Origin: Candidatus Shapirobacteria bacterium
GTDB taxonomy: Bacteria > Patescibacteriota > Microgenomatia > UM-FILTER-40-11
Length of the DNA stretch: 64,000 nucleotides
Assembly (NCBI GenBank): GCA_020059745.1
Contig: JAGVBK010000002.1
Location: 104,301 to 168,300, forward strand
Reading direction: 5' to 3'
In this document: piece after piece, positions 2,947 to 30,901 of the stretch
Numbering within the stretch: position 1 is the first letter of the stretch
Layout of the letters: every line of letters starts with the position of its first letter
Notes under the pieces: model-generated
Databases searched by the model: none
What the model was told of the DNA's origin: nothing
Seen by the model: only the letters and a program-made list of their open reading frames with translations
Program-made: the position numbers and the translations under genes

Positions 2947-5900
2947 TTAGTATACCCTAATTTTTTCCTGATTCAAAGCAACAATCGCGCTTATGGTTGC
3001 GAGCAGCAAGGTAAAACCAAAATATTGAAGATACTGGGGGATGAAAATCAGAACTACTCTGCTCTCGTTTTCCGAGCCAGGCAACACCCAACCGTTTTCC
3101 CAATTATTGACAAGAACATGATCATTAATCTCCCGGCCAACTAAAGGCAGTAGAAAAGCGGGTCTTTTAATTAAGCTTTCTCCTTCGAAGTAAGCTTTCC
3201 AGCCTTCATGATAAGACTGGGATAAGACAAGAAGGCTTTCCTGCCGTGGGGGGACATCGATTTTATAAAGGCTGGGGTTGGGGTGAGAACTTTCCGCCTT
3301 CATGTATTTAATTGGAGCCAAAGAAACATCTTTTTGGAAACGAATTCCAGAAAGAAAGTAGTATGGAATTGGGTTGATAGTAATCATCCCCAAATCATTG
3401 ACAGATTCATGCCTGCCAATAGAGATATTGTCAAAATGGAGCCGGTAGCCAATGCCTGATTTCTGCATCGGTGGTTGGATAATGAACTTCTCTCCTCCTT
3501 CTTTTTGAAGATAAAATTCCTGGTCTGCCCTTCTTGCACTTTGATTTTCCAGCCAAAAAAGCAGGCTTTTGCCTTTGACATTTTCATTCTCAACTTTAAT
3601 AAGATAGCCGAATTTATGAAGCAAATTCTCAAAACTAAAAGTGGCTGAGCAGTTGGTGGAATTAACGGCGCTAAGCCTTAGAAAGTTATTCCCCTGTTTA
3701 TTTGCAATTTCATTTTTGACTGTACCGAAACTGAATTGATTGCAGTTTTTAGCTTCTAAGCCTCCGGCAGTCGGATTAACTTCACCGCTGAAATAGCCCC
3801 CAACCTTAGGAACAATCACCTCGATATTCCTTCCCTGAACATTTACCTTTGGAATAAGATACTTAACATCGCTAAAGTCCCCGGGGTTTACCCAAATGAG
3901 TTCTCTGCCGTCAAAATCTGGAAGCCTTAGTTCATATGACAAAACCTCTTGAGGCACTTCCTTTGAAAAAATAAAGCTGTCTTTTGTTTCCTTAATATTA
4001 AAATCAAAACCTTCTGTCCCCCTGCCGGTAAAAATGGAACGGAACGGATAGTAGTAGTCCGCTTCTTTTTGCTCTGAATATATCCCCAAATCCAAAAAAG
4101 CCCGGTCATAACTTCCCCACCTGTAAGAAGAAGCCACTTTGGCAGTATCGGTAGAAATAAAGACATAATTTTCTATTGGATAGTCCAGATTAACTTTATA
4201 AAGCAGGATATTGCCAAAAGTTTTTTCAAGGCTGAATTTTGGCGAAGAAAACATCTCTTCAAGCTCGTCAAAACCCAGAGCTTTATAGTTGCCGGTATTG
4301 TAAATGTTTTTATCGACAAGCGCGTATTCTATTTGGTACTTATCAAATATCTTTTCAAATATTTCATTTTTCCTTGAAAAAAGAGCATACGACATTTCCC
4401 AGTAATAGTTCTCGTTTTGGCTGCTCCACATGTCAAAATTACGGTCTAGAATCGGCTGGTTAATACCATACCAAATAAAACCCGAGCCGGTATAATTCCA
4501 ACGGTAAAGACTCCAACCCCAAAAACTTGATTGGGGAAAATCGGCAATTCTCCCGTCTTTACCGCTTTTTTTAAGATAAGAAAAAAGCTCAAAATAGTTT
4601 TCGGGAATGCGGGCTTTTACCCTTGGGTAAAATAATTTACCCTGAAAAACCGGATACAAATAAAACACGGGCAAAAAAGCCAAAAGGACAATGATTAAGA
4701 GGCTCTTTTTTGAGTTTGCCTTTGAACTTAACCAAAAACAAAATGCACCAAAATACAAAGAAAGGCAAAAAGCAAGCAAAGCGGAAAACTTAGTAAAAGG
4801 AAATCTGAACATCTGAGAAAATAGCGGAAGCTTAAAGAAAGCTTTTGACAAAAGCGAAATAACCGGTGTTTCGTTGGCTAAAACTAAAAAAGACAAGAAG
4901 AAAACCGGCAAAAAAGAGATTAATTTTTTAAATTTTAAAAATGAAATTAAAGCGCCTGCCGTTCCTAAGAAAAAAAGCAAAAACCCAAAGAAAGAAATCA
5001 CCGGATTTTCGAGGTGTCCTGTCCAAGGCGCCATTAGATAATTCACTGTTCCGTTCTCACTTGTTTCCGTGGTATCAAACCAAAAACCTTTAAGAAGAAC
5101 GACATTTTTTAGATCCCCGTATTTTTTGTTTTTAAGTAAGTTGTCTTCGGTTGTCATCTGGCTAATTTTTGACTGGACCGTGATATTAACATCCGAAAAG
5201 ACAAAATAAAGATTTGGCAAAAGCCAAAAAGCGTTAGTGATAAAAATAAAAGCAAAAGAAAGCAAAACCCTCTTAAGACTGCCTTTGTTTTGCAAAAGAT
5301 AAACAAAAGAAGCCAAACCCCAAGCCATTAAATAGACCGCAAAAAAGGTGCCTACATATCCCTGTGGCACAGCCAGCAAATTCACCAAAAGAAGAAAAAT
5401 AAGGCTCTTTTTATCCCTTTTCTCCAGGAAATTAAGATTAACTAAAAACAACCAGGGCAAAGAAGCAAAGTGGTGAGAAAAAGCTTCAAAAGGAACATAA
5501 AAAAGCTGAATTGTGGCCAGGTTAAAAAGATAAAAGACAGAGCCGGCCAGAGCGGAAAGTTTTTTCTTACCTTTTCCTGCCAAGAGAAAAGAAAGTAAAA
5601 AGTAAATCCCCAAAGACCCCAGGTAAAGCATTAGAAAGTGGTAAAAATATCTGAGAAACGAACTTGGGAGAAACAAAGAAAAAATCCATAAAATTAGCTG
5701 CCTTGGCAAGTCTGCGGCATGGCCCATGCCACCCATTAAACCCAAGCCCTGATACTCCTGCCAGGAAGCAAAAAATGATCTTTTAAGATTAAGGCCAAAA
5801 TCAAACTCAGGATGAAGGTTATCCCAACCTGAAAGCCATGTTCCGGCATGAGAATTTGCAATGCTTATAGCCAAAAAGACGGCAGTTAAAATCAGCACCG

Positions 5901-5949
5901 GCCAAATGTCAATTACTTTAAGGAAAAATTGTTTAAAAAAGTTTTTCAT
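2947..5949 (-). CDS. large polytopic membrane protein, putative GT-C-type glycosyltransferase (YfhO/arabinosyltransferase-like)
   Basis: 1000 aa. About 15 predicted TM helices in the N-terminal 550 aa, then a long soluble C-terminal domain. Sits with GT4 and GT2 DPM-synthase-like genes. Family assignment is by architecture only. Confidence 0.6.
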   Translation of the reverse strand: MKNFFKQFFLKVIDIWPVLILTAVFLAISIANSHAGTWLSGWDNLHPEFDFGLNLKRSFFASWQEYQGLGLMGGMGHAADLPRQLILWIFSLFLPSSFLRYFYHFLMLYLGSLGIYFLLSFLLAGKGKKKLSALAGSVFYLFNLATIQLFYVPFEAFSHHFASLPWLFLVNLNFLEKRDKKSLIFLLLVNLLAVPQGYVGTFFAVYLMAWGLASFVYLLQNKGSLKRVLLSFAFIFITNAFWLLPNLYFVFSDVNITVQSKISQMTTEDNLLKNKKYGDLKNVVLLKGFWFDTTETSENGTVNYLMAPWTGHLENPVISFFGFLLFFLGTAGALISFLKFKKLISFLPVFFLSFLVLANETPVISLLSKAFFKLPLFSQMFRFPFTKFSALLAFCLSLYFGAFCFWLSSKANSKKSLLIIVLLAFLPVFYLYPVFQGKLFYPRVKARIPENYFELFSYLKKSGKDGRIADFPQSSFWGWSLYRWNYTGSGFIWYGINQPILDRNFDMWSSQNENYYWEMSYALFSRKNEIFEKIFDKYQIEYALVDKNIYNTGNYKALGFDELEEMFSSPKFSLEKTFGNILLYKVNLDYPIENYVFISTDTAKVASSYRWGSYDRAFLDLGIYSEQKEADYYYPFRSIFTGRGTEGFDFNIKETKDSFIFSKEVPQEVLSYELRLPDFDGRELIWVNPGDFSDVKYLIPKVNVQGRNIEVIVPKVGGYFSGEVNPTAGGLEAKNCNQFSFGTVKNEIANKQGNNFLRLSAVNSTNCSATFSFENLLHKFGYLIKVENENVKGKSLLFWLENQSARRADQEFYLQKEGGEKFIIQPPMQKSGIGYRLHFDNISIGRHESVNDLGMITINPIPYYFLSGIRFQKDVSLAPIKYMKAESSHPNPSLYKIDVPPRQESLLVLSQSYHEGWKAYFEGESLIKRPAFLLPLVGREINDHVLVNNWENGWVLPGSENESRVVLIFIPQYLQYFGFTLLLATISAIVALNQEKIRVY

Positions 5950-7255: not shown

Positions 7256-8062
7256 TTAATATTCGAAAACTTTTTTAAAAGAAGAAACCACTACCTTTCT
7301 GAATTGTGGCCTTATCTGATAAATATTCTTTAGATCATTAACTTTAATGGCAAACATTTCTTTGAAAGCTCTCAAAATATCCCTTACCAGGTTAACTTTA
7401 CTTGACTTACTTATATGTTTCCAAGTAACAGGCAGCTCGACAATTCTGTAATTAAGCTTGTTGCTGACATAAATTACTTCCGGATCCAGCCCCCATCTTT
7501 CTTGAGTCAATCTGGGAAAAACATCGCGACAGACTTGGTAAGAAAAAACCTTAAAGCCGCCGGTAAAATCAGCAATTTTAATTCCTAAAACAGTTTGGAG
7601 AATTTTACTGTGAACCGTGCCGATTATTTCCCTAACCATACTTCTTTTAACCAAGGAAATAGTTTGGGGAAGCTTTTTGCTGCCTACTAAAACTTCATAA
7701 CCTTTATGCATAAAGAGAGAAAATTCTTTAAGGTTTTCAAGAGGAATTGACATGTCGCCGTCTAAAAACATGCCAAAATCAGTATTTACCTCTTTTACTC
7801 CCTGCATGACCGCATATCCCCGGCCTTTGTTTAAGGGATAGGAAATAAGGAAAATTTCCGTTTGGTCAATAATATTTCCGGAGTACTGTCTTTGGAAATT
7901 TTTCAGTAAAGAAAGAGTTTTGTCTTTACTGCCGTCATCAACAAAAATAAGTTTTTCAATCTTAATGCTTTTTGGGCTTTTGTAATTGACAAGATAACCC
8001 AAAGTTTTTTTAAGCCTTTTTTCTTCATTATAGAGAGGGACAATGACAGTTAATGTTTTCAT
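7256..8062 (-). CDS. GT2 family glycosyltransferase (dolichyl/polyprenyl-phosphate sugar synthase-like)
   Basis: VIVPLYNEE...VDDGSKD...DGD motifs are typical of GT2 DPM/DPG synthases. Confidence 0.8.
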   Translation of the reverse strand: MKTLTVIVPLYNEEKRLKKTLGYLVNYKSPKSIKIEKLIFVDDGSKDKTLSLLKNFQRQYSGNIIDQTEIFLISYPLNKGRGYAVMQGVKEVNTDFGMFLDGDMSIPLENLKEFSLFMHKGYEVLVGSKKLPQTISLVKRSMVREIIGTVHSKILQTVLGIKIADFTGGFKVFSYQVCRDVFPRLTQERWGLDPEVIYVSNKLNYRIVELPVTWKHISKSSKVNLVRDILRAFKEMFAIKVNDLKNIYQIRPQFRKVVVSSFKKVFEY

Positions 8063-8063
8063 C

Positions 8064-8348
8064 TTAAAACCCCTTTTCTTTCATGCACCTTTGGTATGAG
8101 TCCCAATCAGGGACACGGGCGCTGCTGCCGCCCTCAGGGTTCTCATAAGTATTGACGCCCACTGTCATACACCCCTGAACAGCATTGTTTTTTATCATTC
8201 TTTCCGATTGCCTGTATCCCAAAACCACCGCTCCAATAAGGGCGGCGCCGATTAAGATAGTTCCGATATCTTTTCTCATTTTTTCACCGATAAAAGCATA
8301 AAATAAATTTTTATACTTTAGTCGATGCGTAACCCGAAGAGTGTTCAT
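8064..8348 (-). CDS. small membrane/secreted hypothetical protein
   Basis: 94-aa ORF. One TM helix (ILIGAALIGAVVLG). Real start is possibly the internal MRKD. GC content is intermediate, at the edge of the GC-rich island. Confidence 0.4.
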   Translation of the reverse strand: MNTLRVTHRLKYKNLFYAFIGEKMRKDIGTILIGAALIGAVVLGYRQSERMIKNNAVQGCMTVGVNTYENPEGGSSARVPDWDSYQRCMKEKGF

Positions 8349-8403
8349 TTACCTTATGAAGGTAAACTACTAACCCTCCGGGTTACGCGATCGGCATGCA
8401 ATG

Positions 8404-9549
8404 CTACTTGACAAGTCCCAGATACTGCTCCCGCCAGAATGTGGCTGCAATAGCCATTCCTTCCCACCCTACGGGAATTCTGGCTTTGGGATAGCTTGGG
8501 ATCAATATCAAGTTTGGGTCGGTCGGCACCTCCAGACGCTCTCCGTCGAACGGAAATTCGAACGGATTCCTGATGAAAAACGCGTCTTGGGGAGGTGCCT
8601 GCCAGTTGCCGTTGCCCAGATCGACGAGCCTGACACTCGGTGCAAGGCCGAATGTTGAGCGGATCCACGCTTCGTTCACCTGTGAAGGCGAAAAAGCGGG
8701 GGTCGCACTGGGAACGACGGGCGTTGGGGCAGCTAGCGGAACTGGTGTCTGAGTTGGCACAACTTGGGCTACCAAAGTAGCTGTCGGCTGTACCAAACTT
8801 GAGACCTGACCGATTTGACCAACTGAGGTCACAGGGATCACGCCAGTGATCCTGTGATACTCGTCAATACTGAAAGGCCTGAACGTGATCCCCTGTACAG
8901 GACCACACCAACCAGCAGGAATTCCTGACCCAACTGCTTCTGGGGGAAAACCCTCTTCTAGGGTCCTCCCGTGCAACTCCCGCTGTCTGCGGTCCGCCAT
9001 CCAGCCATCTTGCCGGAAAGGAGTGAAGTTACAAACCTCAATGGAAACAATATTCCCAAAGAGGTCTTTCTCCTCCGGCACCTTCCAGCTCCATGGCTCA
9101 CCCCTAGCCCTGCTAACCTCGCTGGGCTCAATGGACGGCTGAGCCTGTCTCCTTGTTGCAAGGATAACAAACTCATCCACTGACCTTGGCCAATCCTCCA
9201 TGACCTCAAGGCCTAGAACCCTGATGTCGTCCAGAGTCTGACCGCCAGTCAGAGTAAGCCCGAAAGCCTGAACCCTAGGTGACGGTGCCATTGCAACCGT
9301 CGGTTCGGATTGAACAGCCTCCTGACCGGGAGTCGGAGTCACAAGGACCTCAACAACCCGAGTCACTTCGACCGGAACCTCCTTCTCGACAACGACGGTC
9401 TCCTTGACCACCTGAGGGACGACCCTGGTGACCTCGACCGGGACCGTCTCCTTGACGATCTCGGGCGTTGGTGTCAGAGCACTTTCCCTGAGCGCACAAC
9501 CCGTGATCATCACGATAGCCACCATTACAACCAGGAATATCATCTTCAT
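8404..9549 (-). CDS. lipoprotein, hypothetical (GC-rich island)
   Basis: 381 aa. Signal peptide with lipobox-like ITGC. Tandem VKETVPVEVTRVV/KEVPVEVTRVVEV repeats and Pro/Thr-rich linkers. Region is about 57% GC. Confidence 0.6.
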   Translation of the reverse strand: MKMIFLVVMVAIVMITGCALRESALTPTPEIVKETVPVEVTRVVPQVVKETVVVEKEVPVEVTRVVEVLVTPTPGQEAVQSEPTVAMAPSPRVQAFGLTLTGGQTLDDIRVLGLEVMEDWPRSVDEFVILATRRQAQPSIEPSEVSRARGEPWSWKVPEEKDLFGNIVSIEVCNFTPFRQDGWMADRRQRELHGRTLEEGFPPEAVGSGIPAGWCGPVQGITFRPFSIDEYHRITGVIPVTSVGQIGQVSSLVQPTATLVAQVVPTQTPVPLAAPTPVVPSATPAFSPSQVNEAWIRSTFGLAPSVRLVDLGNGNWQAPPQDAFFIRNPFEFPFDGERLEVPTDPNLILIPSYPKARIPVGWEGMAIAATFWREQYLGLVK

Positions 9550-9559
9550 CTCAACCCTC

Positions 9560-10156
9560 CTAATCCCTCTGATGTCTCCGAAGAAACCCTGGAATGTCCA
9601 ACTCCGAACCGGGCGGATCCAGAGGATTTTCAGGCGTCTGCCTTTCCTCTTTCATCTCCGCCGCCCTGAAATTCAACCGTTCCAATTCCTCGATAAGCTC
9701 CTCCCTTTTCTCGTTCAGCTTCTTGATCTCATTTCTCGCCTGCTCGAGTTGAACTCTTTTTTCGCCAACGACACTAGTCAACTCTGCCACAGTCTTCTGT
9801 AGTTCGAGAACTTCTCCGTACAACTCATTTTTTCGACGCTGGCCTTCCTCAATCTTCTCGTCTGTTGTTGAGGCAACTTCCTCTTTCCTCCCTCTCACGT
9901 TCAAGATTATGGAAAGAACGAAAAGCAAAACCCCAACGACCAGGAGAATCCAGACCCAAGGCTCAAAAATCGCGAAAAAGTCGACGAGGACAAGCCCAAC
10001 AACAATATTTACCAGGCTCACCCCCAAAAACACAGTACCAACAATAAGTAAGACCAACACCAGGCGCTTCATGTCTTCTTCTCCTTTGCATGCCGATGTC
10101 AAAGAACTACTTTTGGCTCCTTCCAAGAACCGCAATTGGTCCTCTTTCTGGGCCAA
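9560..10156 (-). CDS. membrane protein with coiled-coil, hypothetical (GC-rich island)
   Basis: 198-aa ORF. The likely start is the internal MKRLV at about 10072. Two TM helices followed by a charged coiled-coil (EELIEELERL). Confidence 0.5.
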   Translation of the reverse strand: MAQKEDQLRFLEGAKSSSLTSACKGEEDMKRLVLVLLIVGTVFLGVSLVNIVVGLVLVDFFAIFEPWVWILLVVGVLLFVLSIILNVRGRKEEVASTTDEKIEEGQRRKNELYGEVLELQKTVAELTSVVGEKRVQLEQARNEIKKLNEKREELIEELERLNFRAAEMKEERQTPENPLDPPGSELDIPGFLRRHQRD

Positions 10157-10285
10157 AAGACCGATTTTTCAAAATCGGAATAATACCCACTATTAATGAA
10201 CATCTTTCCGACTTCAAAAGACAACCAGCCGGAGAGAGAAAGATACGCTTGCGCGTAAACAAACTCTCTCCGGCGAGATGCCATC

Positions 10286-11086
10286 CTACTCGAACCAAAC
10301 CACTGCGGTCCAGACCTTAACGTGCCCCGGCCCCTTGAATTTGTCTAGGTTTTCCCCAAGAATTGGGTTCCACCCGGTGACCAAGGCATTCTCGGGCACA
10401 GCGAGCATGACAGGGTTTCCACCACTGTTATAGTCAAAGCTGCACCCATCCTTCCGAAGGGCCCAGACACCACCAGTGACAACATTGGCTTGAAGCCAAT
10501 CGATGCTTGGGCAACCCTCGGGTTGGTCCGGAATCGGGAGCCTCGGCAAAGGCGGATTGAACACCACTGGGAGAAACAAAATACTTTCTCCAGGTGTCGG
10601 AACCACCGTTGGCTCGGCGGTTGCCATTGCAGTTGGTTCCGGCGTGGCGGTCGGCGTTGCCGTTACAGTTGGTACTGTAACCGTTGGCTCGGCCGTTGCC
10701 GTGGCGCTCTGTGGCTCAATCCACAGAACCCCGTCCCAAAATTCTCCCGAACCAGGTCCTTCCACCAGAAGGTCTTTTTGGCCCTCCGGCTCCGGCCGCG
10801 GATCCCAACCAGTCATCTTGGATCCACCCGCGGGGACAACGAGCAAGATCGGCTCCTCAAACGGGCCTCTTCCGCTCTCGAAAACAAAATCACAACCTTC
10901 GTCGGGCCCGACTTTCCACATCGAGAGTTCACCCCCGATGTTTTCCGCGACCCACTCGAGATCCGGGCACTCTTGCGGGGGTTCCGGAATGGCAACCTCC
11001 GCTGAGAGCTGGAACGGCAAAACTGCCGCCAGCGCGACCACAACCGCGAGTACAAGACTGCGCTTCATTTCCCCTCCTGGGATCAT
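10286..11086 (-). CDS. secreted protein with internally duplicated Cys-containing domain, hypothetical (GC-rich island)
   Basis: 266 aa. Signal peptide (likely start MKRSLVLAVVV). Two homologous domains (PQECPDLEWV...GCDF...TGWDP and PEGCPSIDWL...GCSF...TGWNP) separated by a T/P/A-rich linker. Confidence 0.6.
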   Translation of the reverse strand: MIPGGEMKRSLVLAVVVALAAVLPFQLSAEVAIPEPPQECPDLEWVAENIGGELSMWKVGPDEGCDFVFESGRGPFEEPILLVVPAGGSKMTGWDPRPEPEGQKDLLVEGPGSGEFWDGVLWIEPQSATATAEPTVTVPTVTATPTATPEPTAMATAEPTVVPTPGESILFLPVVFNPPLPRLPIPDQPEGCPSIDWLQANVVTGGVWALRKDGCSFDYNSGGNPVMLAVPENALVTGWNPILGENLDKFKGPGHVKVWTAVVWFE

Positions 11087-11216
11087 AAGGATGGCAAATA
11101 CTCAATGTGCTTCTGGTCTCACCAGCCAGATTGGCGCTTACGCCTTTCTAGTTATTGAAACCAGAAAAGGAAATTGAACTCCTAGTTTCCTTTCCCGGCT
11201 TCAACCGGAAACTTCT

Positions 11217-11894
11217 TTATTTTTTAAGACGAAGCAGCATGTATCCGGCAAGACCGGCAATTGAGGTTAAAGGGGCAACGAAAAGCAAACTAGAACCTGT
11301 GGCAGGAGTTTCACCTAAAACTTTTTTAACTTTGGTAACACAAACTTTAGAAGTGTCTTCTCTTTCTTCACCGCCGAATTTAGCCCTGACAGTGTTTTTG
11401 ACATCACAGTCAAAATCTTTATCACTCGGAGTGGAAACAACAACTGTTTCAATCTGTTTCTCTTCTGATTCGCCAGGTCCTAAATCTAAAATATCAAAAG
11501 TAAGGCTTCCTGACTCAAGCTTTAACTCAGCCGGAAGAAAGTCTGTAACAGTCACTTTTTCAAAAGTGCTGTTGCTGTTGTTAATGATTTTTATTCTGAA
11601 AATAACTTTTTCGCCAATGCTGAATTTATAGCCTTCAGGAGTAATGTCGGCTAAATTGTCTTCGAACCTTTTGTCAATCGGGCTCCAAACCTTTTTATCT
11701 AAAACAAGCTCTTCAACTTCGGTACAGACTTCGCCGCCGCCGTATAAAGATTCGCAACGGATTGCTCCAAAAGCATTTTTAGGAGAAATAATAAAAGCCG
11801 CAATAAATAAAATTGCGGTTAACAAAGCATGTTTCCTGTCCATTTTCATTTTTATTAAGGCTAAATAATAAAGACATGGCGTATTATAGGGCAT
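11217..11894 (-). CDS. cell-surface DUF11-like protein with C-terminal sortase sorting signal (paralog A)
   Basis: Likely start is MKMDRKH at about 11849. Signal peptide, Cys-rich N-terminus, DUF11-like beta domain (VTVTDFLPAEL). C-terminus is LGETPATG, then a hydrophobic stretch, then RLKK. Confidence 0.65.
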   Translation of the reverse strand: MPYNTPCLYYLALIKMKMDRKHALLTAILFIAAFIISPKNAFGAIRCESLYGGGEVCTEVEELVLDKKVWSPIDKRFEDNLADITPEGYKFSIGEKVIFRIKIINNSNSTFEKVTVTDFLPAELKLESGSLTFDILDLGPGESEEKQIETVVVSTPSDKDFDCDVKNTVRAKFGGEEREDTSKVCVTKVKKVLGETPATGSSLLFVAPLTSIAGLAGYMLLRLKK

Positions 11895-11974
11895 GTTTAT
11901 TGCTTTGTCAACTGCCGATTTCTTGATTTTAGTAAACTTTTAAGAGATAATATCGCCGTTTACTAGAGGATATT

Positions 11975-12730
11975 ATGGAAATAATTCTTTTTGATTCATC
12001 CTGGGAAAAGGAAAAAATAATACCGGTTGATATTCCGGTTCCTAAACCTGTGGAACCAAAAATTTCTTCTTCTTTCCCTTTCGCAAAATTTGCCAGAGGC
12101 CTTGCTTTGGGCTTAATCGGCATTTCTCTTTTTGTTTTTGGCGCAGCAGTTTTGCCAATAATCAAGCTGGAATTAAGCTACCGCCTTAATCCTAAAAATG
12201 AAGCTGAAGCAAGAGAATACTTTCCCAAAACTCCAAGTTATGAGGTTGCCTTAGAAAACAAAAAGCAGCTTGCCTCACAAGAAGCAGCCAAATACGGGGT
12301 TGATACAGATTTTTCTCTGGTCATCCCTAAAATTTCTGCTACCTCAAAAATCATTGCCAATGTGGACCCGGCAGACGAAAATAAATACAAAGCTGCTCTT
12401 AAAAATGGAGTTGCCCACGCCAGCGGCACCAAATTCCCTGGCAGCAAAGGCACTATTTATCTTTTTGCCCATTCCACCAACACTTTAGTTAATGTTTCCC
12501 GCTACAATGCTGTCTTTTATCTAGTTAAAGAGCTGGAACCCGGAGACCAGGTTATCATCTTTTTTGCCGGTCTAAAATATTCGTACCGGGTAACCGAAAA
12601 GGTCATCACTACTCCAGAAGATTTATCTTTGATAAAAGACAACCAATCAACTGAAAAGCTAATTCTTCAAACCTGTTGGCCGCCGGGAACAACCTTAAAA
12701 CGGCTCATGGTTGTAGCAGAAAGAATTTAA
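11975..12730 (+). CDS. sortase (paralog A)
   Basis: 251 aa. N-terminal membrane anchor, catalytic His in LFAHS, catalytic Cys in LILQTCWP (TLxTC-like), conserved Arg downstream. Divergently paired with its substrate gene. Confidence 0.8.
   Translation: MEIILFDSSWEKEKIIPVDIPVPKPVEPKISSSFPFAKFARGLALGLIGISLFVFGAAVLPIIKLELSYRLNPKNEAEAREYFPKTPSYEVALENKKQLASQEAAKYGVDTDFSLVIPKISATSKIIANVDPADENKYKAALKNGVAHASGTKFPGSKGTIYLFAHSTNTLVNVSRYNAVFYLVKELEPGDQVIIFFAGLKYSYRVTEKVITTPEDLSLIKDNQSTEKLILQTCWPPGTTLKRLMVVAERI
12281..12395. repeat. near-identical 115-bp tract shared by the two sortase paralogs (second copy at 13871-13985)
   Basis: gaagcagccaaatacggggttgatacagatttttctctggtcatccc... is about 98% identical between copies, while the flanking gene sequence has diverged. 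Further short identical tracts lie near the catalytic Cys codons (12650-12690 and 14250-14290). Confidence 0.8.
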
Positions 12731-12845
12731 CTTTCCATTTAAAAGTTCCCGAAATTAGTTTTCAAAGAGCTTAAATTGAAAATAATGGTTGGGGTTTAGA
12801 GCAGTTTTAGAAGCATGTAACAACATGGTAATAACTTTGTTAAAG

Positions 12846-13490
12846 CTATCTTCTTTTACCAAAGAAGACCAAGGCCAGACCCAAGAGTCCGTTTACTAAA
12901 GAAAGACCCAAAGTTGCTGGCATGGCACCGCTTCCGGTTTTCGGTAAAACCGTTGGTTTCCTCTCAACAACTTCTCGTCTGCTTACGCAAATTCTTGAGG
13001 TATCTTTATCCTCAATTCCGTCAGCTTTAACCGCTACTTCGTTAAAATCACAGATAACATCCTTATCTTTTGGAAATCTGCCTTCACTTACTACCCTTAC
13101 CCTGATATCCCTTTCCTCCACTTCATTGCGGTCAAAATCTGTAATATCAAAATCCAAATCTCCAGAAACAAACTCTAAAAATGAAGGAAGAGTATCTCTT
13201 ACCTCAACCCTGTCAAAGTCTCTTTCTCCTGTATTTTCCACCCTAATCCTGAAAACAACTTCATCCCCGGAAAAAAACTCATGGTCAGTAAAATCAAGGT
13301 TGTCAACAAAACGGCCGTCTCTTGGGTCCTGCACTTTTTTGTCAACATCAATTTCAATCGGCGGGCAAACATCATACTGAGGCTCACAAATATCAGAAGC
13401 AGCCGCATCTTTCCTCAAAACAAAAAAAAATGAAGCGGATAAAAAGATTAAGCCAAGTTTTCTTAATGTCATTTTGCTTACAATTTCCAT
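12846..13490 (-). CDS. cell-surface DUF11-like protein with LPKTG sorting signal (paralog B)
   Basis: C-terminal VLPKTGSGA, then a hydrophobic helix, then GKRR. N-terminal signal peptide (likely start MTLRKLG). DUF11-like domain (VEVRDTLPSFLEF). Confidence 0.75.
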   Translation of the reverse strand: MEIVSKMTLRKLGLIFLSASFFFVLRKDAAASDICEPQYDVCPPIEIDVDKKVQDPRDGRFVDNLDFTDHEFFSGDEVVFRIRVENTGERDFDRVEVRDTLPSFLEFVSGDLDFDITDFDRNEVEERDIRVRVVSEGRFPKDKDVICDFNEVAVKADGIEDKDTSRICVSRREVVERKPTVLPKTGSGAMPATLGLSLVNGLLGLALVFFGKRR

Positions 13491-13603
13491 TTCTATTTAT
13501 TATTCACAGGGTGCCAAATCGTGTCAAGCAGAAAGAAACATTTTTAGTTCAAATTTATTTTTTTAGCTTGAATTTCCTAGCTTTTTTTTAATATAAACAG
13601 AGT

Positions 13604-14320
13604 ATGGAAATAATTCTTTATGAGGCTAAAGATAAAAAAAGCCTTGTTTTAAAAGAGTTTACAAAACTTTCTTTCATAAACTCCAAAGCCGCAGCCGAAT
13701 ACCTGGGCTACAGCTTTCTTGCCGCCTCCTTAATGTTTCTATTGGTCGGCTTTGCCCCGATTATTAAAGAAGAAGCAAAATATCAACTAAAAAGACTTTT
13801 TACTTTCTCTGCTCCGGAGGCAAGCGTTGAAAGTGTTTTTTTTGAAAACTCAAAAAAAATTGTTGAAGAGGAAGCAGCCAAATACGGGGTTGATACAGAT
13901 TTTTCTCTGGTCATCCCCAAAATTTCTGCAACCTCAAAAATCATTGCCAATGTGGACCCGGCAGACGAAAATAAATACAAAGAACTTCTAAAAACCGGAG
14001 TGGCACACGCGACAGGCACAAAGTTTCCCGGAAACAATGGCACTATTTATCTTTTTGCCCATTCCACCAACAACCCGGAAAACATTGTCCGCTACAATGC
14101 GGTTTTTTACCTTTTAAAAGAACTTGAGCCTGAAGATGAAGTCATTGTTTTTTTTGCCGGCCAAAAATTTGTCTATAAAGTTACCAAAAACTTTATTGCC
14201 GAAGCCGGTGACCTAAAATGGCTCTCGGGAGATGAGAATGAAGAAAAGCTAATTCTTCAAACCTGTTGGCCGCCGGGGACAACTTTCAAACGGCTCATTG
14301 TTGAAGCTAAACCTTTATAA
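13604..14320 (+). CDS. sortase (paralog B)
   Basis: 238 aa. LFAHS and LILQTCWPPGT motifs. Shares near-identical DNA tracts of about 115 bp with paralog A. Confidence 0.8.
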   Translation: MEIILYEAKDKKSLVLKEFTKLSFINSKAAAEYLGYSFLAASLMFLLVGFAPIIKEEAKYQLKRLFTFSAPEASVESVFFENSKKIVEEEAAKYGVDTDFSLVIPKISATSKIIANVDPADENKYKELLKTGVAHATGTKFPGNNGTIYLFAHSTNNPENIVRYNAVFYLLKELEPEDEVIVFFAGQKFVYKVTKNFIAEAGDLKWLSGDENEEKLILQTCWPPGTTFKRLIVEAKPL

Positions 14321-14359
14321 AGGTCTTTCTTAAAGAAAGCTTCATTTTATGTTAAAATA

Positions 14360-16528
14360 TTGATGGACAGAAACCAAATGACTGGAGAAGAATTACCTTT
14401 CTCATTGATTGAGATCCGTTTACCTAAATCAAGCGAAAAAACCCCGGAAGCGGCGGCTCAGCTTTTTGCGGCCTTTTCCTCCCTTCCTAAAAAGTCTTTT
14501 TTGTCTTTTAAACCTCCAGTAAGCATTTGTTTTGAAATTGTTTGTGTTGACCAGGTCGTCCATTTTCTCATTTCCTGCCCTAAGGAAATGAAAGGTTATG
14601 TTGAAAGCCAGCTTTCTGCCCAATATCCGGAAAGCATCCTTCTGGAAATTCCCAAAGATTATCTTGCCGGCTACACCCAAAACTCAAACCCAAACCTGGG
14701 CCAGCTTACTTTATCAAACAGCTTTTATCTGCCTTTGCGAACCTATAAGGAAGTTAAAGACTCTGATCTTATTTCTTCTGTTTTGGGCGCTATGTCCAAA
14801 GCCGGGCCGGAAGATTTTATGGCTATCCAATTTATTATCGCCCAAGCCGGTAACTGGCAAGGCTATGCCCAGGGAATCATTGACAGAGGAATCCCCTCAG
14901 GAGAGGAAGGAAAAACTCTTCCCCACCCCCAGGCAAAACACATTGCTGAAAAAATAAGCAGCGGTGGCTTTTGGACCGCCATAAGAATCATTGCCAGTTC
15001 AGAAGAACTTCTAAGAAATATTTCCAATTCCTTTTCTTCCTACCAAAGCGATGTCAATGGCTTAAAACTTAAAAAAATAAGCCCGAGAAACAAAAAAAAG
15101 CTGCTTGAATCTTGTCTCAAAAGGTCTTTCGAAATGGCTCCTGCTAACCAGGTTCTTAACCTTGACGAGCTCGCTTCTCTTTGGCACCCTCCATCAAAGC
15201 ATTTGTCGGGCATTAAAAACATCATGTGGACACAAACCATTATGAGTGAGCCTCCCCTAAACCTGCCTACAGCAATCGACCTTAATGAAGCTGACAAAAA
15301 AGAAATCAATTTCATAGCCCGGACTGAGCATAAAAACAAGGTGGCAACCTTTGGCATTAAGAAAAAAGACCGTAGAAGGCATGTTTACATTATCGGGAAA
15401 AGCGGTACCGGAAAATCAACTTTAATTGCCAATATGGCCATAAACGACTTAAGGAACCGGGAAGGTCTGGCAGTTATTGATCCTCACGGCGATTTAACTG
15501 AAATTCTTTTGGATTATATTCCCTCTTTTAGGATAAACGAAACTTGCTATCTTGACCCGAGCGACACCGCCAACCCTTTTCATCTTAATCCCCTTGAGGT
15601 TAAAAACCCGGCCCATAGAGAACTTGTGGCCTCGAATATTGTCGCCATTTTTTATAAGCTCTACCACTATTCCTGGGGGCCAAGGCTTGAATACATTTTA
15701 AGAAATACAATCCTGACTTTACTGCAAACCCCGCAGCCAACACTTCTTCAGATTACGGAAATGCTTTCCAATAAAAACTTCAGGAAAAGAGTGGTTGATA
15801 ACCTCAATGACCCGGTCTTAAAAAGCTTCTGGGTTAATGAGTTTGAAAAAATGTCTGAAAAAATGATGAATGAAGCGGTTTCTCCGATTTTAAATAAAGT
15901 CGGCCAGTTTACTTCCTCTCCCACCATCAGACAAATTGTCGGCTCTTATCACTCAACAGTTGACCTTGAGGGTATCATGAATTCCGGCAAAGTTTTGCTT
16001 GTTAACCTTTCCCAAGGAAAAATTGGAGAAGACAATGCTGCGCTTTTAGGTGCCATGATTATTACCCAGCTTCAACTGGCGGCCATGAACAGGATTAATG
16101 TTGCTGAAGAACAAAGGAGAGATTTTTATCTTTATGTTGACGAGTTTCAAAACTTTGCCACCAGTGCCTTTGTTAAAATACTTTCTGAGGCAAGAAAATA
16201 CCGCTTAGACCTTTGTCTGGCAAATCAGTATGTCGGCCAGCTTGAAGAAGACCTGCAAAAAGCAATTTTCGGGAATGCGGGAACTTTAATTTCTTTTGTT
16301 GTCGGTGCCGGAGATGCAGGCTACATGGCCCAGGAATTCGGCCAGATTTATAAAGAAGAAGATTTAGTTAATCTGGGCATGTATCAGGTGGCAATGAAGC
16401 TTTGCATCGACAACTTAACATCTTCTCCGTTTTTGGCTACCACCATGCCTCTTCCAAGATGCAAAAACCAAAACAGGTCAAAAGTGCTTAAGGTCTCCAA
16501 GGAAAGACACACGGTCAAGCAAAAATAA
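14360..16528 (+). CDS. VirD4/TrwB/TraD-like P-loop ATPase (coupling-protein-like), no TM segments
   Basis: 722 aa. Walker A IIGKSGTGKST followed by VIDPHGD, as in TrwB/TraG. Walker B LYVDEFQNF. Arg/Gln sensor region EARKYRLDLCLANQ. N-terminal roughly 340-aa domain of unknown function. Confidence 0.65.
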   Translation: MMDRNQMTGEELPFSLIEIRLPKSSEKTPEAAAQLFAAFSSLPKKSFLSFKPPVSICFEIVCVDQVVHFLISCPKEMKGYVESQLSAQYPESILLEIPKDYLAGYTQNSNPNLGQLTLSNSFYLPLRTYKEVKDSDLISSVLGAMSKAGPEDFMAIQFIIAQAGNWQGYAQGIIDRGIPSGEEGKTLPHPQAKHIAEKISSGGFWTAIRIIASSEELLRNISNSFSSYQSDVNGLKLKKISPRNKKKLLESCLKRSFEMAPANQVLNLDELASLWHPPSKHLSGIKNIMWTQTIMSEPPLNLPTAIDLNEADKKEINFIARTEHKNKVATFGIKKKDRRRHVYIIGKSGTGKSTLIANMAINDLRNREGLAVIDPHGDLTEILLDYIPSFRINETCYLDPSDTANPFHLNPLEVKNPAHRELVASNIVAIFYKLYHYSWGPRLEYILRNTILTLLQTPQPTLLQITEMLSNKNFRKRVVDNLNDPVLKSFWVNEFEKMSEKMMNEAVSPILNKVGQFTSSPTIRQIVGSYHSTVDLEGIMNSGKVLLVNLSQGKIGEDNAALLGAMIITQLQLAAMNRINVAEEQRRDFYLYVDEFQNFATSAFVKILSEARKYRLDLCLANQYVGQLEEDLQKAIFGNAGTLISFVVGAGDAGYMAQEFGQIYKEEDLVNLGMYQVAMKLCIDNLTSSPFLATTMPLPRCKNQNRSKVLKVSKERHTVKQK

Positions 16529-16531
16529 AAA

Positions 16532-16888
16532 CTAGGTTCTTCTTCTGGAAAAATTCAGAAACCGGCAACCATATCTTTTCCTGTGTTCCAAACCCTCCTT
16601 AACCTTACCGCTCATATGGGTGCAGGGCGCGCCCTTACCGGAAGTAATTACTTCAAACAACCTAGCTTTATCTTCTCCTGACAAAAACTCACTTTGCCTT
16701 AGCCTTTCAATTTCCGAAAGCGCTTCAGAAGATAAAGATATGTGGCTGCCAAATTGCTTTTCAATCCTTAAAAGTATTCCACCAAGCATGCCATTACCTC
16801 CCTCCTCAAAATAGCTTTTAACAAATTTTCCAAGCGGTCTAGCGGCAAGATCGCCAGATATTCTCTCAGGTCTCATAGTAATTTTCAT
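16532..16888 (-). CDS. hypothetical protein
   Basis: 118-aa ORF (likely start MRPER). No recognisable motif. Lies directly downstream of a minus-strand intrinsic terminator and candidate leader. Confidence 0.4.
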   Translation of the reverse strand: MKITMRPERISGDLAARPLGKFVKSYFEEGGNGMLGGILLRIEKQFGSHISLSSEALSEIERLRQSEFLSGEDKARLFEVITSGKGAPCTHMSGKVKEGLEHRKRYGCRFLNFSRRRT

Positions 16889-16920
16889 TATAGCAGTTTA
16901 GCTGAGATTTTTTCCAACAA

Positions 16921-17245
16921 AAAATCCGCCTATTCGGCGGACTTCTTGAAAACAATCGAGAGCCAGAGAGAGAATTTGGATTTGCGGGAAACGCTGGCTT
17001 AGCCAACGAATCTCATCCTCTTTCCTCTCTGGCTCTCACCTCCCCAAAGGGAGAAGATAAAGACATCGGACAAAACCTTCTTCTCATTCTCTCCTCTCCA
17101 GCAGCCATTGATGGAAAAGAAAGGTTTCCTGTGCCCCAGCTCACAGTTAGAGATTGGGTTTCTCCTAGTCTTTTTTTTAAAGGACTCCGCACAAAAAAAC
17201 ACTTTCTGCTTTCTTAGGAAGTGTTTGTGAGGAAGATAATAATAA
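16921..17245 (-). ncRNA. candidate structured ncRNA or long leader (unit 1) with sigma70 promoter and intrinsic terminator
   Basis: On the minus strand: TTGACA (17267-17262), 17-bp spacer, TGTTATTAT extended -10 (17244-17239). About 310 nt with no credible ORF and dense in hairpins. Ends in CCGCCGAATAGGCGG plus a U-tract (16946-16921). Identity unknown. Confidence 0.45.
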
Positions 17246-17277
17246 CAAATGCTATTTTTCTTGTCAAGCCCAACAAA

Positions 17278-17700
17278 AAACCCGCCTATTCGGCGAGTTC
17301 TTTGAGAAAACAAGGGAAAACGGATGGGGTCGGGGGAAGGCAACAATACATCAAGTGGTTTTAAAAACCCACAAAATGTATCTTTACCTTCCCGGGTTCC
17401 CCTTACCCTCCCGTTTGACGGGACCGACAGTTGCTTCTCTTTGGTTTGGTAAAAATACACCTTGCCTGGAGAAGCTGGCCCGCTTTAAGCGGAGCCAAAG
17501 GAAGTAGTCCGAGGATATCTGCGAATAAAAGGCAAAATCCCTCCTTTCCTTCAATCACTGCAGTGGCGGATACAACGCCGGGTCGGGGTAACCAAGCTTT
17601 TGTCTTTTGGGTCAGCTTGGTTTTTTAATCCGTTTTCCCTTTTAAAAGAACAAAACATTCTTACCTTTGCTTATAAAGATAAGAAAAATGACACTAAATA
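17278..17700 (-). ncRNA. candidate structured ncRNA (unit 2), homologous to unit 1
   Basis: Same terminator motif (CCGCCGAATAGGCGGG + U-tract at 17300-17278). Homologous upstream box (ATAGCATTT) and TTGACA at 17730-17725. GC-rich hairpins and 5'/3' complementary ends (GGGAAAACGG / CCGTTTTCCC). No ORF. Confidence 0.35.
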
Positions 17701-17744
17701 AATGCTATATAATTTTTTATTTTCTGTCAATATACACCTTGTGC

Positions 17745-18068
17745 CTAAACCTTTGTCCAGCCGGTTTTTTCAAGCTGGCTTATAAGCTGGGGACAATCGC
17801 CTTCTGTAGTAAGCTGCATCACGAAAGCTCCGGTGTCGGTAACCACCTCGCAGATTTCACCTACTTTTCTGCCCTCTTTATAAAGACAAAGACCGCCTTT
17901 TCTTTCCGTAATCTGCTCAGTGCCATGCCCATTTTGCCGAGAAAATCTGACTTCATGATACTCGTTTCCCTTATCGTTCCAAAAGTTTCCATTGCAGTTT
18001 TCGCTAAAGATACAGTGGTTTATAATCCAAACTGAAGGTTGAAAGTGTCCATTTTCAGGACTTAGCAT
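17745..18068 (-). CDS. hypothetical protein
   Basis: 107-aa ORF with more protein-like composition than the overlapping plus-strand ORF. No recognisable motif. Confidence 0.3.
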   Translation of the reverse strand: MLSPENGHFQPSVWIINHCIFSENCNGNFWNDKGNEYHEVRFSRQNGHGTEQITERKGGLCLYKEGRKVGEICEVVTDTGAFVMQLTTEGDCPQLISQLEKTGWTKV

Positions 18069-18201
18069 AATTAATTTTGATATTTTTCAACAAAAATTTC
18101 AATTATCAAATTAAGCCATAAAAATTGACATTATAGGATATTTATGATAAATTTCTGCCCATCCGTTCATTACGGTATGCACATTCACAACAGGAGGTAC
18201 A

Positions 18202-18729
18202 ATGTACATCCGGGAGTTGCCCGCAGTTGGAGAGCTAGCAAAAGTGCAGGCTCAAATCGTCCGGTATGTTCTGCTCACGATTTTTTTCGGATCTCTCCTT
18301 TTTCTCTCTGCCGCTCTTTTCGGCTCCGACATTGTTTGGAGCTGGGATGGCTTTGATCCCTTCTTGGGAGAAAGAGCCATCGAGGGCCTGGCAATCTCAT
18401 TTCTTACCTCTGGGCTGGAAATGCTCAGGGGCATATTGGTTGCAGGAGAAGTAGTAAAAAGGAAATCGCCCGAGTACTACCTTTTGTGCATCCTTGAAGC
18501 AGTTGCCTATGTAGTTGATATCATTACCAACTACTTGGGCATATCTGTACGGCGAGGAGAGTCGGCCTGGGGCTGGACGAGCGACAATGCTGTCGCCACT
18601 ATAGTCAAGGCAGGACTGGCCATCGTCGTCAGCTTCATGGAAATGTTTGTGTTCTGGTTTGCTGAGGCAACGGCTGTTTGCTCGAAATCTCTACAGGCTG
18701 CTGTAGAAACAAAAAAGCAACTGTCCTAG
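18202..18729 (+). CDS. hypothetical membrane protein (GC-rich islet)
   Basis: 175 aa with 3-4 TM helices. About 52% GC. Upstream promoter-like TTGACA-N17-ATAAAT at 18126-18154. Stem-loop at 18741-18780. Confidence 0.5.
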   Translation: MYIRELPAVGELAKVQAQIVRYVLLTIFFGSLLFLSAALFGSDIVWSWDGFDPFLGERAIEGLAISFLTSGLEMLRGILVAGEVVKRKSPEYYLLCILEAVAYVVDIITNYLGISVRRGESAWGWTSDNAVATIVKAGLAIVVSFMEMFVFWFAEATAVCSKSLQAAVETKKQLS

Positions 18730-30663: not shown

Positions 30664-30901
30664 ATACTACACTGGAAAATTTCAAATTCCAAGCTCCAAT
30701 TTCCAAATGGTTCGACCTTGCTCACCATCTTACAAACCCCAACTAAATTTTAAAATCCAAATTTTAAATTTTAATTCAAATTAAAATGATTAAATAATTA
30801 AGCATTAAAACATTTAAACATTCATTTAAAACTTTAAATTTAAAACTTAAAATTGCATTTTACTGCTTTGTTTCTTGTTTTTTGGAACTTGGCTGTTTGA
30901 T

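Follow-up and report, generated by a model that had tools for sequence, protein, structure and literature searches.

The stretch of DNA analyzed here, a 64,000-nt segment of contig JAGVBK010000002.1 from Candidatus Shapirobacteria bacterium (hereafter, the window), carries two divergently transcribed gene pairs, each consisting of a gene for a small secreted protein (subA, subB) and a gene for a sortase (srtA, srtB), followed by a gene for a 722-aa ATPase resembling type IV coupling proteins (T4CPs). Taken as a whole, the locus likely represents old, duplicated sortase-substrate cassettes with recent gene conversion, located beside an independent core ATPase present across the Candidate Phyla Radiation (CPR). 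Both cassettes are unremarkable examples of an already known CPR sortase family, and the ATPase is a core CPR gene outside the sortase system, its position being inherited gene order. Both sortases with adjacent substrates and orphan T4CP-like ATPases have already been published for CPR/Patescibacteria. A preliminary description of this DNA had proposed five open reading frames (ORFs) in the arrangement of two substrate/sortase pairs and then the ATPase; this arrangement, with the coordinates and strands of all five, was confirmed (Table 1).

Profile scans against Pfam and NCBIfam were performed on all five proteins, and against Pfam on every window ORF of at least 150 aa. For the ATPase, one genome per species was scanned, which yielded at least 597 species-level loci, and 80 of those were fetched for counts of neighbouring genes. 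The survey of the sortase family comprised 80 independent metagenome loci. Loci other than the window carry L numbers; the close clade, with an ATPase at least ~70% identical, consists of the window, L003, L085-L089, L093, L097, L101 and L172. The locus itself was assembled identically in two separate Joint Genome Institute (JGI) samples, L001 and L002.

Both srtA and srtB encode membrane-anchored sortases, in agreement with the preliminary description. The Sortase profile PF04203 matched SrtA with E 2.1e-21 (76.4 bits) and SrtB with E 7.9e-21 (74.5 bits; cutoff 26.6), and TIGR01076 matched them with 46.7 and 41.6 bits, respectively (cutoff 39.35). The LFAHS motif is located at aa 163 in SrtA and aa 150 in SrtB, the LQTCWP motif at aa 231 and aa 218, and residues H166, C234 and R243 are invariant in an alignment of 16 sortases. 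Hydropathy analysis revealed a single N-terminal hydrophobic helix per sortase, which would place the anchored catalytic domain on the extracytoplasmic side of the membrane. The two proteins are 53% identical. They scored below the cutoffs of the class models of NCBIfam, with 49.4 and 45.7 bits for class C (NF033745, cutoff 160), 51-63 bits for class D (140-165), 25-33 bits for class E (160) and ~17 bits for class F (166). The family to which they belong is near-ubiquitous in Microgenomates (PMC6744442).

The substrates are secreted DUF11-like proteins with a C-terminal sorting signal, as had been described. The DUF11/CLIPPER profile PF01345 matched SubA (E 3.5e-7, 31.0 bits) and SubB (E 2e-7, 31.7 bits) above its gathering threshold of 24.6, and the TIGR01451 repeat was found on the substrates with 36 bits (cutoff 24; SubA E 3.9e-9), so that DUF11, Sortase and TrwB_AAD_bind/TraG-D_C matches above cutoff were obtained over the five proteins. 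An N-terminal signal-type helix is present in both, and the C-terminal helices, at aa 203-221 in SubA and aa 192-210 in SubB, are each followed by a basic tail; the two proteins share 38% identity. The canonical LPKTG signal described for the second pair is present, and TIGR01167 (LPXTG_anchor) matched SubB with 17.2 bits (cutoff 15.9) and gave no match on SubA in the NCBIfam scan. The signal of the first pair is indeed atypical, although the motif itself, previously read as LGETPATG, had to be corrected to TPATG, which aligns with LPKTG. The true start of subA is probably Met16, at position 11849, because the promoter-like site at 11911-11883 reaches into the longer ORF and Met16 is where the orthologs begin.

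Crystallography has verified that the CLIPPER domain adopts a CnaA-like fold with a Lys-Asn isopeptide bond catalysed by Asp (PDB 9IFR; PMC12617251). In SubA the corresponding residues are the Lys of DKKV (aa 66), the Asp of TDFLP (aa 117) and the Asn of NTVRAK (aa 167). The three columns are kept in 11 of the 12 aligned substrates, with one exception lacking both Lys and Asp, and four Cys of the mature protein are conserved across all 12. This alignment predicts an internal isopeptide bond and two disulfides. Among solved structures, sequence searches with the substrates returned only the SpaA pilin 3hr6, at a non-significant E of 0.26.

Comparison of the two sortase genes revealed a tract of 37 codons in which the window copies share 98.2% DNA identity with each other and only 73-81% with any ortholog (L087, L172). 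Outside the tract, identities are 62-80% between A copies, 70-79% between B copies and 42-68% between A and B, so that each copy groups with its ortholog. None of 10,000 permutations of the variable sites reached the observed run (P<1e-4), and the same result (0/10,000, P<1e-4) was obtained with synonymous sites only, the 37 codons containing at most two synonymous differences. The arrangement of two pairs is shared by L087 and L172/L173, and srtB is orthologous to L087_s2 and L172_s2. Because the flanks group by orthology while the tract groups by paralogy, an old duplication was followed by recent conversion. As judged from these comparisons, the duplication predates the split of the lineages, both copies having orthologs in at least three of them, and recent conversion homogenised the β1-β2 coding region of the two sortases. 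The preliminary description had taken tracts of ~98% identity to imply ongoing gene conversion; the tract and the conversion are borne out, with the word "ongoing" applying to the window lineage only. In L172 the paralogs are 82% identical within the tract, the highest pairing for either copy and a weak signal, and L087 gave no conversion signal in the same comparison. It is therefore possible, with weak support, that conversion recurs in other lineages. Tandem duplication with gene conversion is rare in the family: none of the 80 sampled loci has two sortases.

The near-identity of the tracts could alternatively reflect extreme purifying selection at the nucleotide level, for example on a regulatory or RNA element, or an assembly chimera. 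The tract does code for the segment that varies least within the family (consensus YGVxTDFSLVIPKISAxSKIIANVDPADE), and in both copies the minus strand is predicted to form a weak terminator-like hairpin, at 12373-12355 and 13963-13945. However, the orthologs encode nearly the same peptide with DNA only 73-81% identical, and thus protein constraint does not enforce identical codons; the permutation on synonymous sites was significant as well, and independent assembly of the same sequence in the two JGI samples disfavours a chimera. We regard either of these explanations as highly improbable, and gene conversion accounts for the tract.

Based on an alignment of 12 CLIPPER-type substrates of related loci, the sorting signal follows the consensus [L/T/S/I/V/A]-P-x-[T/A]-G, of which TPATG is a position-1 variant. 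It is kept in three close subA orthologs (84-100% identity) and occurs again in one homolog of 40% identity, while relatives of 42-47% identity carry LPKTG. In 37 of the 80 loci of the metagenome survey, the gene immediately next to the sortase encodes a protein with a sorting signal; 35 of these 37 signals begin with Leu, and none of them is TPATG. Sortases encoded beside TPATG substrates share the segment T(T/V)PEDL(S/N)(L/H)IKD just upstream of the catalytic Cys, where the family consensus is D(L/T)xWL(S/T) with a conserved Trp. The TPATG signal and the PEDLSLIKD-type loop co-occur in three lineages, and other family members combine LPxTG with DLxWL. The loop preceding the catalytic Cys contributes to sorting-signal recognition, and because the variant loop lies in that region, a differentiated specificity is reasonable. 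These patterns suggest that SrtA and SrtB have plausibly diverged in specificity, TPATG and the loop-variant sortase forming a private pair. With a TPATG/loop-variant pair beside an LPKTG/consensus pair and a footprint of conversion, the locus offers a compact natural system for studying how sortase specificity evolves.

The organization of one sortase with one adjacent substrate, seen in those 37 loci, is the norm of the family; other relatives pair the sortase with PKD or PA14 proteins. By the established sortase mechanism, each substrate would be a small, strongly promoted protein with one CLIPPER domain, exported by Sec and held in the membrane by its xPxTG signal, hydrophobic helix and basic tail. 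The Cys of the neighbouring sortase would then attack the Thr-Gly bond, cleaving after Thr, and the cleaved substrate would be transferred to a peptidoglycan precursor. A cell wall is expected because the window encodes PBP2, MreB and MreC.

The window cassettes resemble Gram-positive cassettes of class C/D/E/F type and the CPR family fam000526 (Meheust et al. 2019) in the PF04203 domain, the His/Cys/Arg residues, the N-terminal anchor and the tripartite sorting signal on a substrate encoded next to the sortase. They differ from the curated classes A-F in profile score (25-63 bits against cutoffs of 140-166) and from known sortases in the Cys motif, which is LQTCWPPG instead of TLxTC; copy A differs from known cassettes also by Thr at position 1 of TPATG and by its altered pre-Cys loop. 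The substrates share with the CLIPPER domains of fibrillar adhesins (PDB 9IFR; PMC12617251) the PF01345 domain and the positions of Lys (first strand), Asp and Asn, as well as extra Cys pairs, which occur in ~30% of those domains (PMC12617251). Fibrillar adhesins have long tandem-repeat stalks, in contrast to the window substrates, which consist of a single domain (mature length ~150 aa, isopeptide predicted) with no adhesive head.

A second possible function is that of a minimal sortase-assembled pilus, in which SrtA would polymerise SubA head-to-tail via a lysine and SrtB, in the manner of a housekeeping sortase, would anchor the fibre to the wall through SubB as basal subunit, comparable to SpaA/SpaB-type pili. 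Among solved structures, class C pilin sortases (8t28, 2xwg and 6bwe/5k9a, E 4e-6 to 4.5e-4) come closest to the sortases in sequence, the substrates resemble pilins in being small Ig-like proteins of the isopeptide type with one domain, and, besides the non-significant SpaA hit, the RrgB isopeptide domain TIGR04226 matched below cutoff (E 5e-4). Near-perfect promoter-like sites before both substrate genes would fit an abundant structural protein, and the combination of two sortases and two distinct signals is conserved in three lineages. On the other hand, the only near-universally conserved Lys of the 12 substrates is the one predicted to form the intramolecular isopeptide bond, leaving no evident pilin-motif lysine. 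The class C model scored only 46-49 bits, and the segment aligned to the lid region appears to be an ordinary β1-β2 connection. A single cassette in most relatives, together with the absence of two-sortase loci from the survey, indicates that a two-sortase machine is not the general function of the family, and the pili documented in CPR are type IV and Pam pili, the latter formed by donor-strand exchange (10.64898/2026.03.03.709456). We consider a pilus unlikely and favour wall anchoring of the individual substrates.

The ATPase has a distribution of its own. Its homologs form more than 3,465 clusters, with 56-78% identity across Shapiro- and Gottesmanbacteria, and the species-level loci come from Microgenomates, Saccharibacteria, Dojkabacteria, Peregrinibacteria and several Parcubacteria groups. 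A sortase was found within 10 kb of the ATPase in one of the 80 species loci, using phmmer and a profile hidden Markov model (HMM), and conversely the ATPase lies near four of the 80 sortase loci. Its recurrent neighbours are frr-tsf-rpsB, topA, secDF, PBP2, dprA and ftsW/rodA, and it stays beside frr-tsf-rpsB with or without sortases. In a relative with 62% identity, the ATPase gene has rseP as its immediate neighbour on one side and frr on the other, and no sortase is present. The window has rseP 11.4 kb upstream of the ATPase; encoded between them are a 1000-aa protein with multiple transmembrane (TM) helices, two glycosyltransferases and secreted Pro/Thr-rich proteins, together with the sortase cassettes. 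These genes make up a variable cell-envelope island inserted between rseP and the conserved ATPase-frr-tsf-rpsB block. Within the close clade, L088 carries a single pair directly upstream of the ATPase and L087 and L172 carry the double pair, while L003 has a single pair followed by three opposite-strand ORFs, and L085 has one CLIPPER gene, two sortases and an opposite-strand ORF.

The ATPase belongs to the orphan patescibacterial T4CP homologues already reported. A total of 5,713 VirD4-type T4CP homologues were counted in 2,918 Patescibacteria genomes, of which only 148 are near virB4 (PMC12102498); the VirD4-type homologue is non-essential in S. epibionticum, and possible exaptation has been raised (PMC12102498).

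The preliminary description had called the pairing of the sortase cassettes with a coupling-type ATPase unusual and had suggested that it may be what is left of a Gram-positive-style conjugation or adhesin-display module, or a novel form of one. In a single functional unit of this kind, the ATPase would drive the display of the sorted adhesins or be coupled to it. LPxTG adhesins do serve mating-pair formation in Gram-positive conjugation (PMC12857230), and the positional evidence for such a unit is given in the next paragraph. Against it, no type IV secretion system (T4SS), relaxase or integrase genes were detected among the scanned ORFs of the window, VirB4, VirB6 and VirB8 included, and the surroundings consist of chromosomal housekeeping genes, so that a conjugation remnant was rejected. 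Similarly, no relaxase or T4SS mating-pair genes are among the conserved neighbours in the 80 loci, and VirB3, VirB6 and VirB8 partners are absent from both the window and the conserved neighbours. The ATPase occurs across CPR classes, including those in which sortases are patchy; a sortase is near it in only one of the 80 loci, and rseP takes the upstream position in the 62%-identity relative. Opposite-strand genes intervene between sortase and ATPase in L003, L085 and L086, and, by the established pathway, sortase substrates are exported by Sec and need no cytoplasmic ATPase. Synteny thus largely refutes the reading as one unit, which we consider very improbable. The ATPase proved to be universal and a single cassette to be usual, nearly the pattern of a universally conserved, single-copy module with a HerA- or FtsK-like ATPase that the description had itself set against its proposal, but the ATPase is VirB4/VirD4-like. 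A defence system was also rejected, as the only PADLOC matches were generic ATPase ones (mad8, E 1.7e-14, and a weak HerA match), with none to a sortase or a substrate.

Several observations nevertheless weigh against duplicated anchoring cassettes beside an independent ATPase. Neither sortase falls into a curated class from A to F in NCBIfam, and pilus-type enzymes are their nearest solved relatives; wall anchoring of the substrates, as opposed to polymerisation, is an inferred role, and their isopeptide bond and disulfides are predicted from the alignment. In the close clade, a shallow Shapirobacteria-like one to which the sortase-ATPase adjacency is confined, a sortase is always just upstream of the ATPase, and the two genes are co-directional in the window (gap of 39-57 nt) and in L088 (140 nt), which leaves clade-specific co-transcription of the sortase and the ATPase in these two loci as a residual possibility. 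Furthermore, five of the 80 loci, all from more distant Microgenomates, have a CLIPPER sorting-signal protein no more than 10 kb from the ATPase, and in two of those five (L016, L023) it is immediately upstream and co-directional; by a rough estimate this proximity is somewhat above chance.

Profile and structure data support the preliminary assignment of the ATPase to the TrwB/TraD/VirD4-like proteins. TrwB_AAD_bind (PF10412) matched with 41 bits (cutoff 20.5, E 1.5e-10) and TraG-D_C (PF12696) with 26.4 bits (cutoff 22), DUF87 was matched as well, and a PDB profile search returned TrwB 1e9r (E 2.5e-5). The weaker NCBIfam matches to VirD4-like CD1115 and SXT_TraD, like other T4CP subfamily models, remained below cutoff (CD1115 43 vs 250 bits, SXT_TraD 35.7 vs 366, TOL_TraD 17.7 vs 647). 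VirB4 sequence models also fell below cutoff (TIGR00929 19.1 vs 643; AAA_10 21.8 vs 27.5), with no CagE_TrbE_VirB match, and by these sequence scores the motor is closer to T4CPs than to VirB4. A DPHGD motif is found at aa 374, and the Walker A and B residues are invariant in 80 homologs. The start of the gene may be 14363 or 14378 instead of the TTG at 14360.

As previously noted, the ATPase has no TM anchor: hydropathy analysis found no TM segment, and in the AlphaFold2 model the N-terminus is a folded soluble domain. The model, built from an 80-sequence alignment, has a predicted local distance difference test (pLDDT) score of 90.8 for the full protein and of 93.5 for residues 1-306, with a predicted TM-score (pTM) of 0.90 for the latter. 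Foldseek searches of the PDB returned TrwK/VirB4 first, aligned over the full length (E 1.8e-15), whereas TrwB, Cag-beta, DotL and HerA matched the C-terminal half only (TrwB target-normalised TM-score 0.61-0.67). In the model, a VirB4-type N-terminal fold is predicted to precede the ATPase domain, and the helical insertion at aa ~417-527 sits where TrwB has its all-alpha domain. The N-terminal domain, previously described as 340 aa and unassigned, is thus delimited to aa 1-306 and assigned to a VirB4 N-terminal domain (NTD)-like fold, DUF8128. Precomputed PF26449 (DUF8128) matches exist on the window's cluster and on 120 of 120 homologs among the matches listed, with E at most 1e-5 in L088 and a faint match for the window copy. 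A search with this domain among 1.84 billion representatives yielded 950 clusters, among them proteins in which the domain stands alone (~300-450 aa) and others in which it is fused (700-1100 aa).

In ~20 of the 80 species loci, the ATPase is encoded by two genes, and the break falls right after the conserved PPxNLP motif. True TAA or TAG stops end the first gene, and in 15 of 20 breaks both genes share one reading frame. This pattern suggests that one stop codon was gained or lost, splitting or fusing the gene. Stop-codon recoding or readthrough was considered and rejected, as the TAA/TAG stops, sometimes doubled and followed by a new Met, lie exactly at the domain boundary.

The ATPase shares with the T4CPs TrwB of R388 and VirD4 the motor sequence and fold (TM-score ~0.65), the Walker A and B motifs and the helical insertion. 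It differs in having no TM domain and no small membrane partner, relaxase or T4SS genes adjacent, although TM-less T4CPs such as TraJ of pIP501 are a recognised subfamily (PMC7434980). It also differs in its 306-aa VirB4 NTD-like domain, which T4CPs lack, and in being a chromosomal, vertically conserved core gene. In comparison with VirB4/TrwK (PDB 7o42, 8rtd), its motor is closer to VirD4 by HMM scores (TIGR00929, 19 bits vs 643), it is often encoded as two polypeptides, and no VirB3, VirB6 or VirB8 genes are its neighbours. The same architecture of N-domain and ATPase is present in phage proteins, namely phrog_5156, Bacillus phage G gp156 and SPO1 gp27.4, with 21-24% identity over aa 54-708 (tblastn), a phrog E of 3.7e-66 and a Foldseek E of 3e-17 for the N-domain against BFVD. 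These homologues, unlike the chromosomal window ATPase, are found in large phages of Firmicutes hosts, and the records (JN638751, phage G gp155/gp156; FJ230960, SPO1 gp27.4) are all annotated as hypothetical.

The NTD of VirB4 docks on VirB3 and VirB8. By the same token, the DUF8128 ATPase might act as an NTP-driven hexamer whose N-domain docks on a partner, either membrane or protein, and which drives the translocation of DNA or protein; our confidence in both steps is low. It is a tentative and rather doubtful proposal that the protein represents a third architecture of the VirB4/VirD4 lineage outside canonical T4SSs, with a role such as handling or taking up DNA or serving an envelope translocon, perhaps an intermediate between VirB4 and the coupling proteins, and in the Shapirobacteria-like clade perhaps transcriptionally linked to sortase-displayed CLIPPER proteins. 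A literature search found no paper mentioning DUF8128 or a VirB4 NTD-like domain on T4CPs without a TM domain, and the T4SS literature has only counted this class as "T4CP homologues". The new elements here are the VirB4 NTD-like fold of DUF8128 and its occurrence in fused and split genes, which narrow the hypotheses on a highly conserved CPR ATPase.

Table 1. Features of the sortase-substrate cassettes, the ATPase gene and the adjoining high-GC block (positions in the window)
Feature	Position	Strand	Description
subA	11217..11894	-	Sec signal peptide, single CLIPPER/DUF11 domain, TPATG signal, hydrophobic helix, RLKK tail
subA sorting signal TPATG	11295-11309	-	motif at aa 196
subA candidate promoter	11883..11911	-	sigma-70-like, TTGACA-17-TATAAT, 12/12 consensus match
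srtA	11975..12730	+	sortase, N-terminal TM anchor aa 45-63, His166 (LFAHS), Cys234 (LQTCWP), Arg243; variant loop TTPEDLSLIKD
Gene-conversion tract, srtA copy	12281..12392	+	112 nt, 2 mismatches vs 13871-13982; encodes EAAKYGVDTDFSLVIPKISATSKIIANVDPADENKYK
subB	12846..13490	-	signal peptide, single CLIPPER/DUF11 domain, LPKTG signal, hydrophobic helix, KRR tail
subB sorting signal LPKTG	12933-12947	-	motif at aa 182
subB candidate promoter	13499..13527	-	sigma-70-like, TTGACA-17-AATAAT, 11/12 consensus match
srtB	13604..14320	+	sortase paralog, TM anchor aa 36-54, LFAHS, LQTCWP, family-typical DLKWL loop
Gene-conversion tract, srtB copy	13871..13982	+	counterpart of 12281-12392
ATPase N-terminal domain (DUF8128)	14360..15277	+	aa 1-306, soluble alpha/beta, predicted VirB4/TrwK N-terminal-domain fold
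EPPLNLP motif	15248-15268	+	ends N-domain; conserved; gene split here in other CPR lineages
Break in split-ATPase loci	15248-15277		L036, L040, L043, L044, L046, L054, L059-L062, L065, L067, L072, L074, L077, L079, L080, L082-L084
ATPase motor domain	15278..16528	+	TrwB/VirD4-like P-loop nucleotide-binding domain, helical insertion aa ~417-527
Walker A GKSGTGKS	15395-15418	+	aa 346
Walker B YVDEFQ	16133-16150	+	aa 592
High-GC block protein	8404-9549		lipoprotein-like signal
High-GC block protein	9560-10156		TM + coiled coil
High-GC block protein	10286-11086		internally duplicated ~90-aa module with Cys, VWFE at its end

Further observations concern the surroundings of the ATPase. In 26 loci (a subset of L036-L084), a ~360-aa protein with Sigma70_r4 and HARE-HTH domains is encoded immediately upstream of the ATPase, with a median gap of ~80 nt. 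These are Saccharibacteria and Parcubacteria-type loci (e.g., L083:8516-9604); the window lacks this protein, a possible DNA-binding partner. In 12 species-level loci topA, and in 9 dprA, is at most 10 kb from the ATPase, and in the window both are ~12-15 kb away (28684-31789); this may be conserved synteny with DNA-processing genes. Many metagenome-assembled genome records containing the ATPase (L005, L010, L013, L014, L018 and others) are titled uncultured Gammaproteobacteria, Pseudomonadales or Bdellovibrionales, and one cluster is titled Bathyarchaeia; these names are probably taxonomic mislabels of Patescibacteria contigs.

Downstream of the ATPase, the window contains a ~2.2-kb insert (16532-18729) relative to loci where frr directly follows the ATPase. 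It comprises a 118-aa ORF, a gene for a 175-aa protein with ~3 predicted TM-like segments and ~1.3 kb that lacks convincing ORFs. The insert also holds a repeat of 39 nt (16914-16952 and 17270-17308, 82% identical) that forms a terminator-like hairpin. Rfam searches of the window at the gathering threshold detected only tRNAs and the L10 leader, and a permissive scan of 16850-18250 gave nothing credible.

Upstream of the cassettes, the region 8000-11100 has a GC content of 0.47-0.52, compared with 0.36-0.44 elsewhere, and encodes secreted Pro/Thr/Val-rich proteins, homologs of which are present in the relatives L087 and L173. The 1000-aa protein in the island (2947-5949, minus strand) has ~10 N-terminal TM helices and a C-terminal TM helix, with no Pfam or PHROG match; it is encoded beside glycosyltransferases in L003, L085, L086 and L088 and directly adjoins the ATPase in L020 and L033. 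Two MreB paralogs are encoded in the window (34463-35515 and 54229-55233), one beside mreC and PBP2 and the other beside a WecG/TagA-type glycosyltransferase, in what is a small CPR genome.

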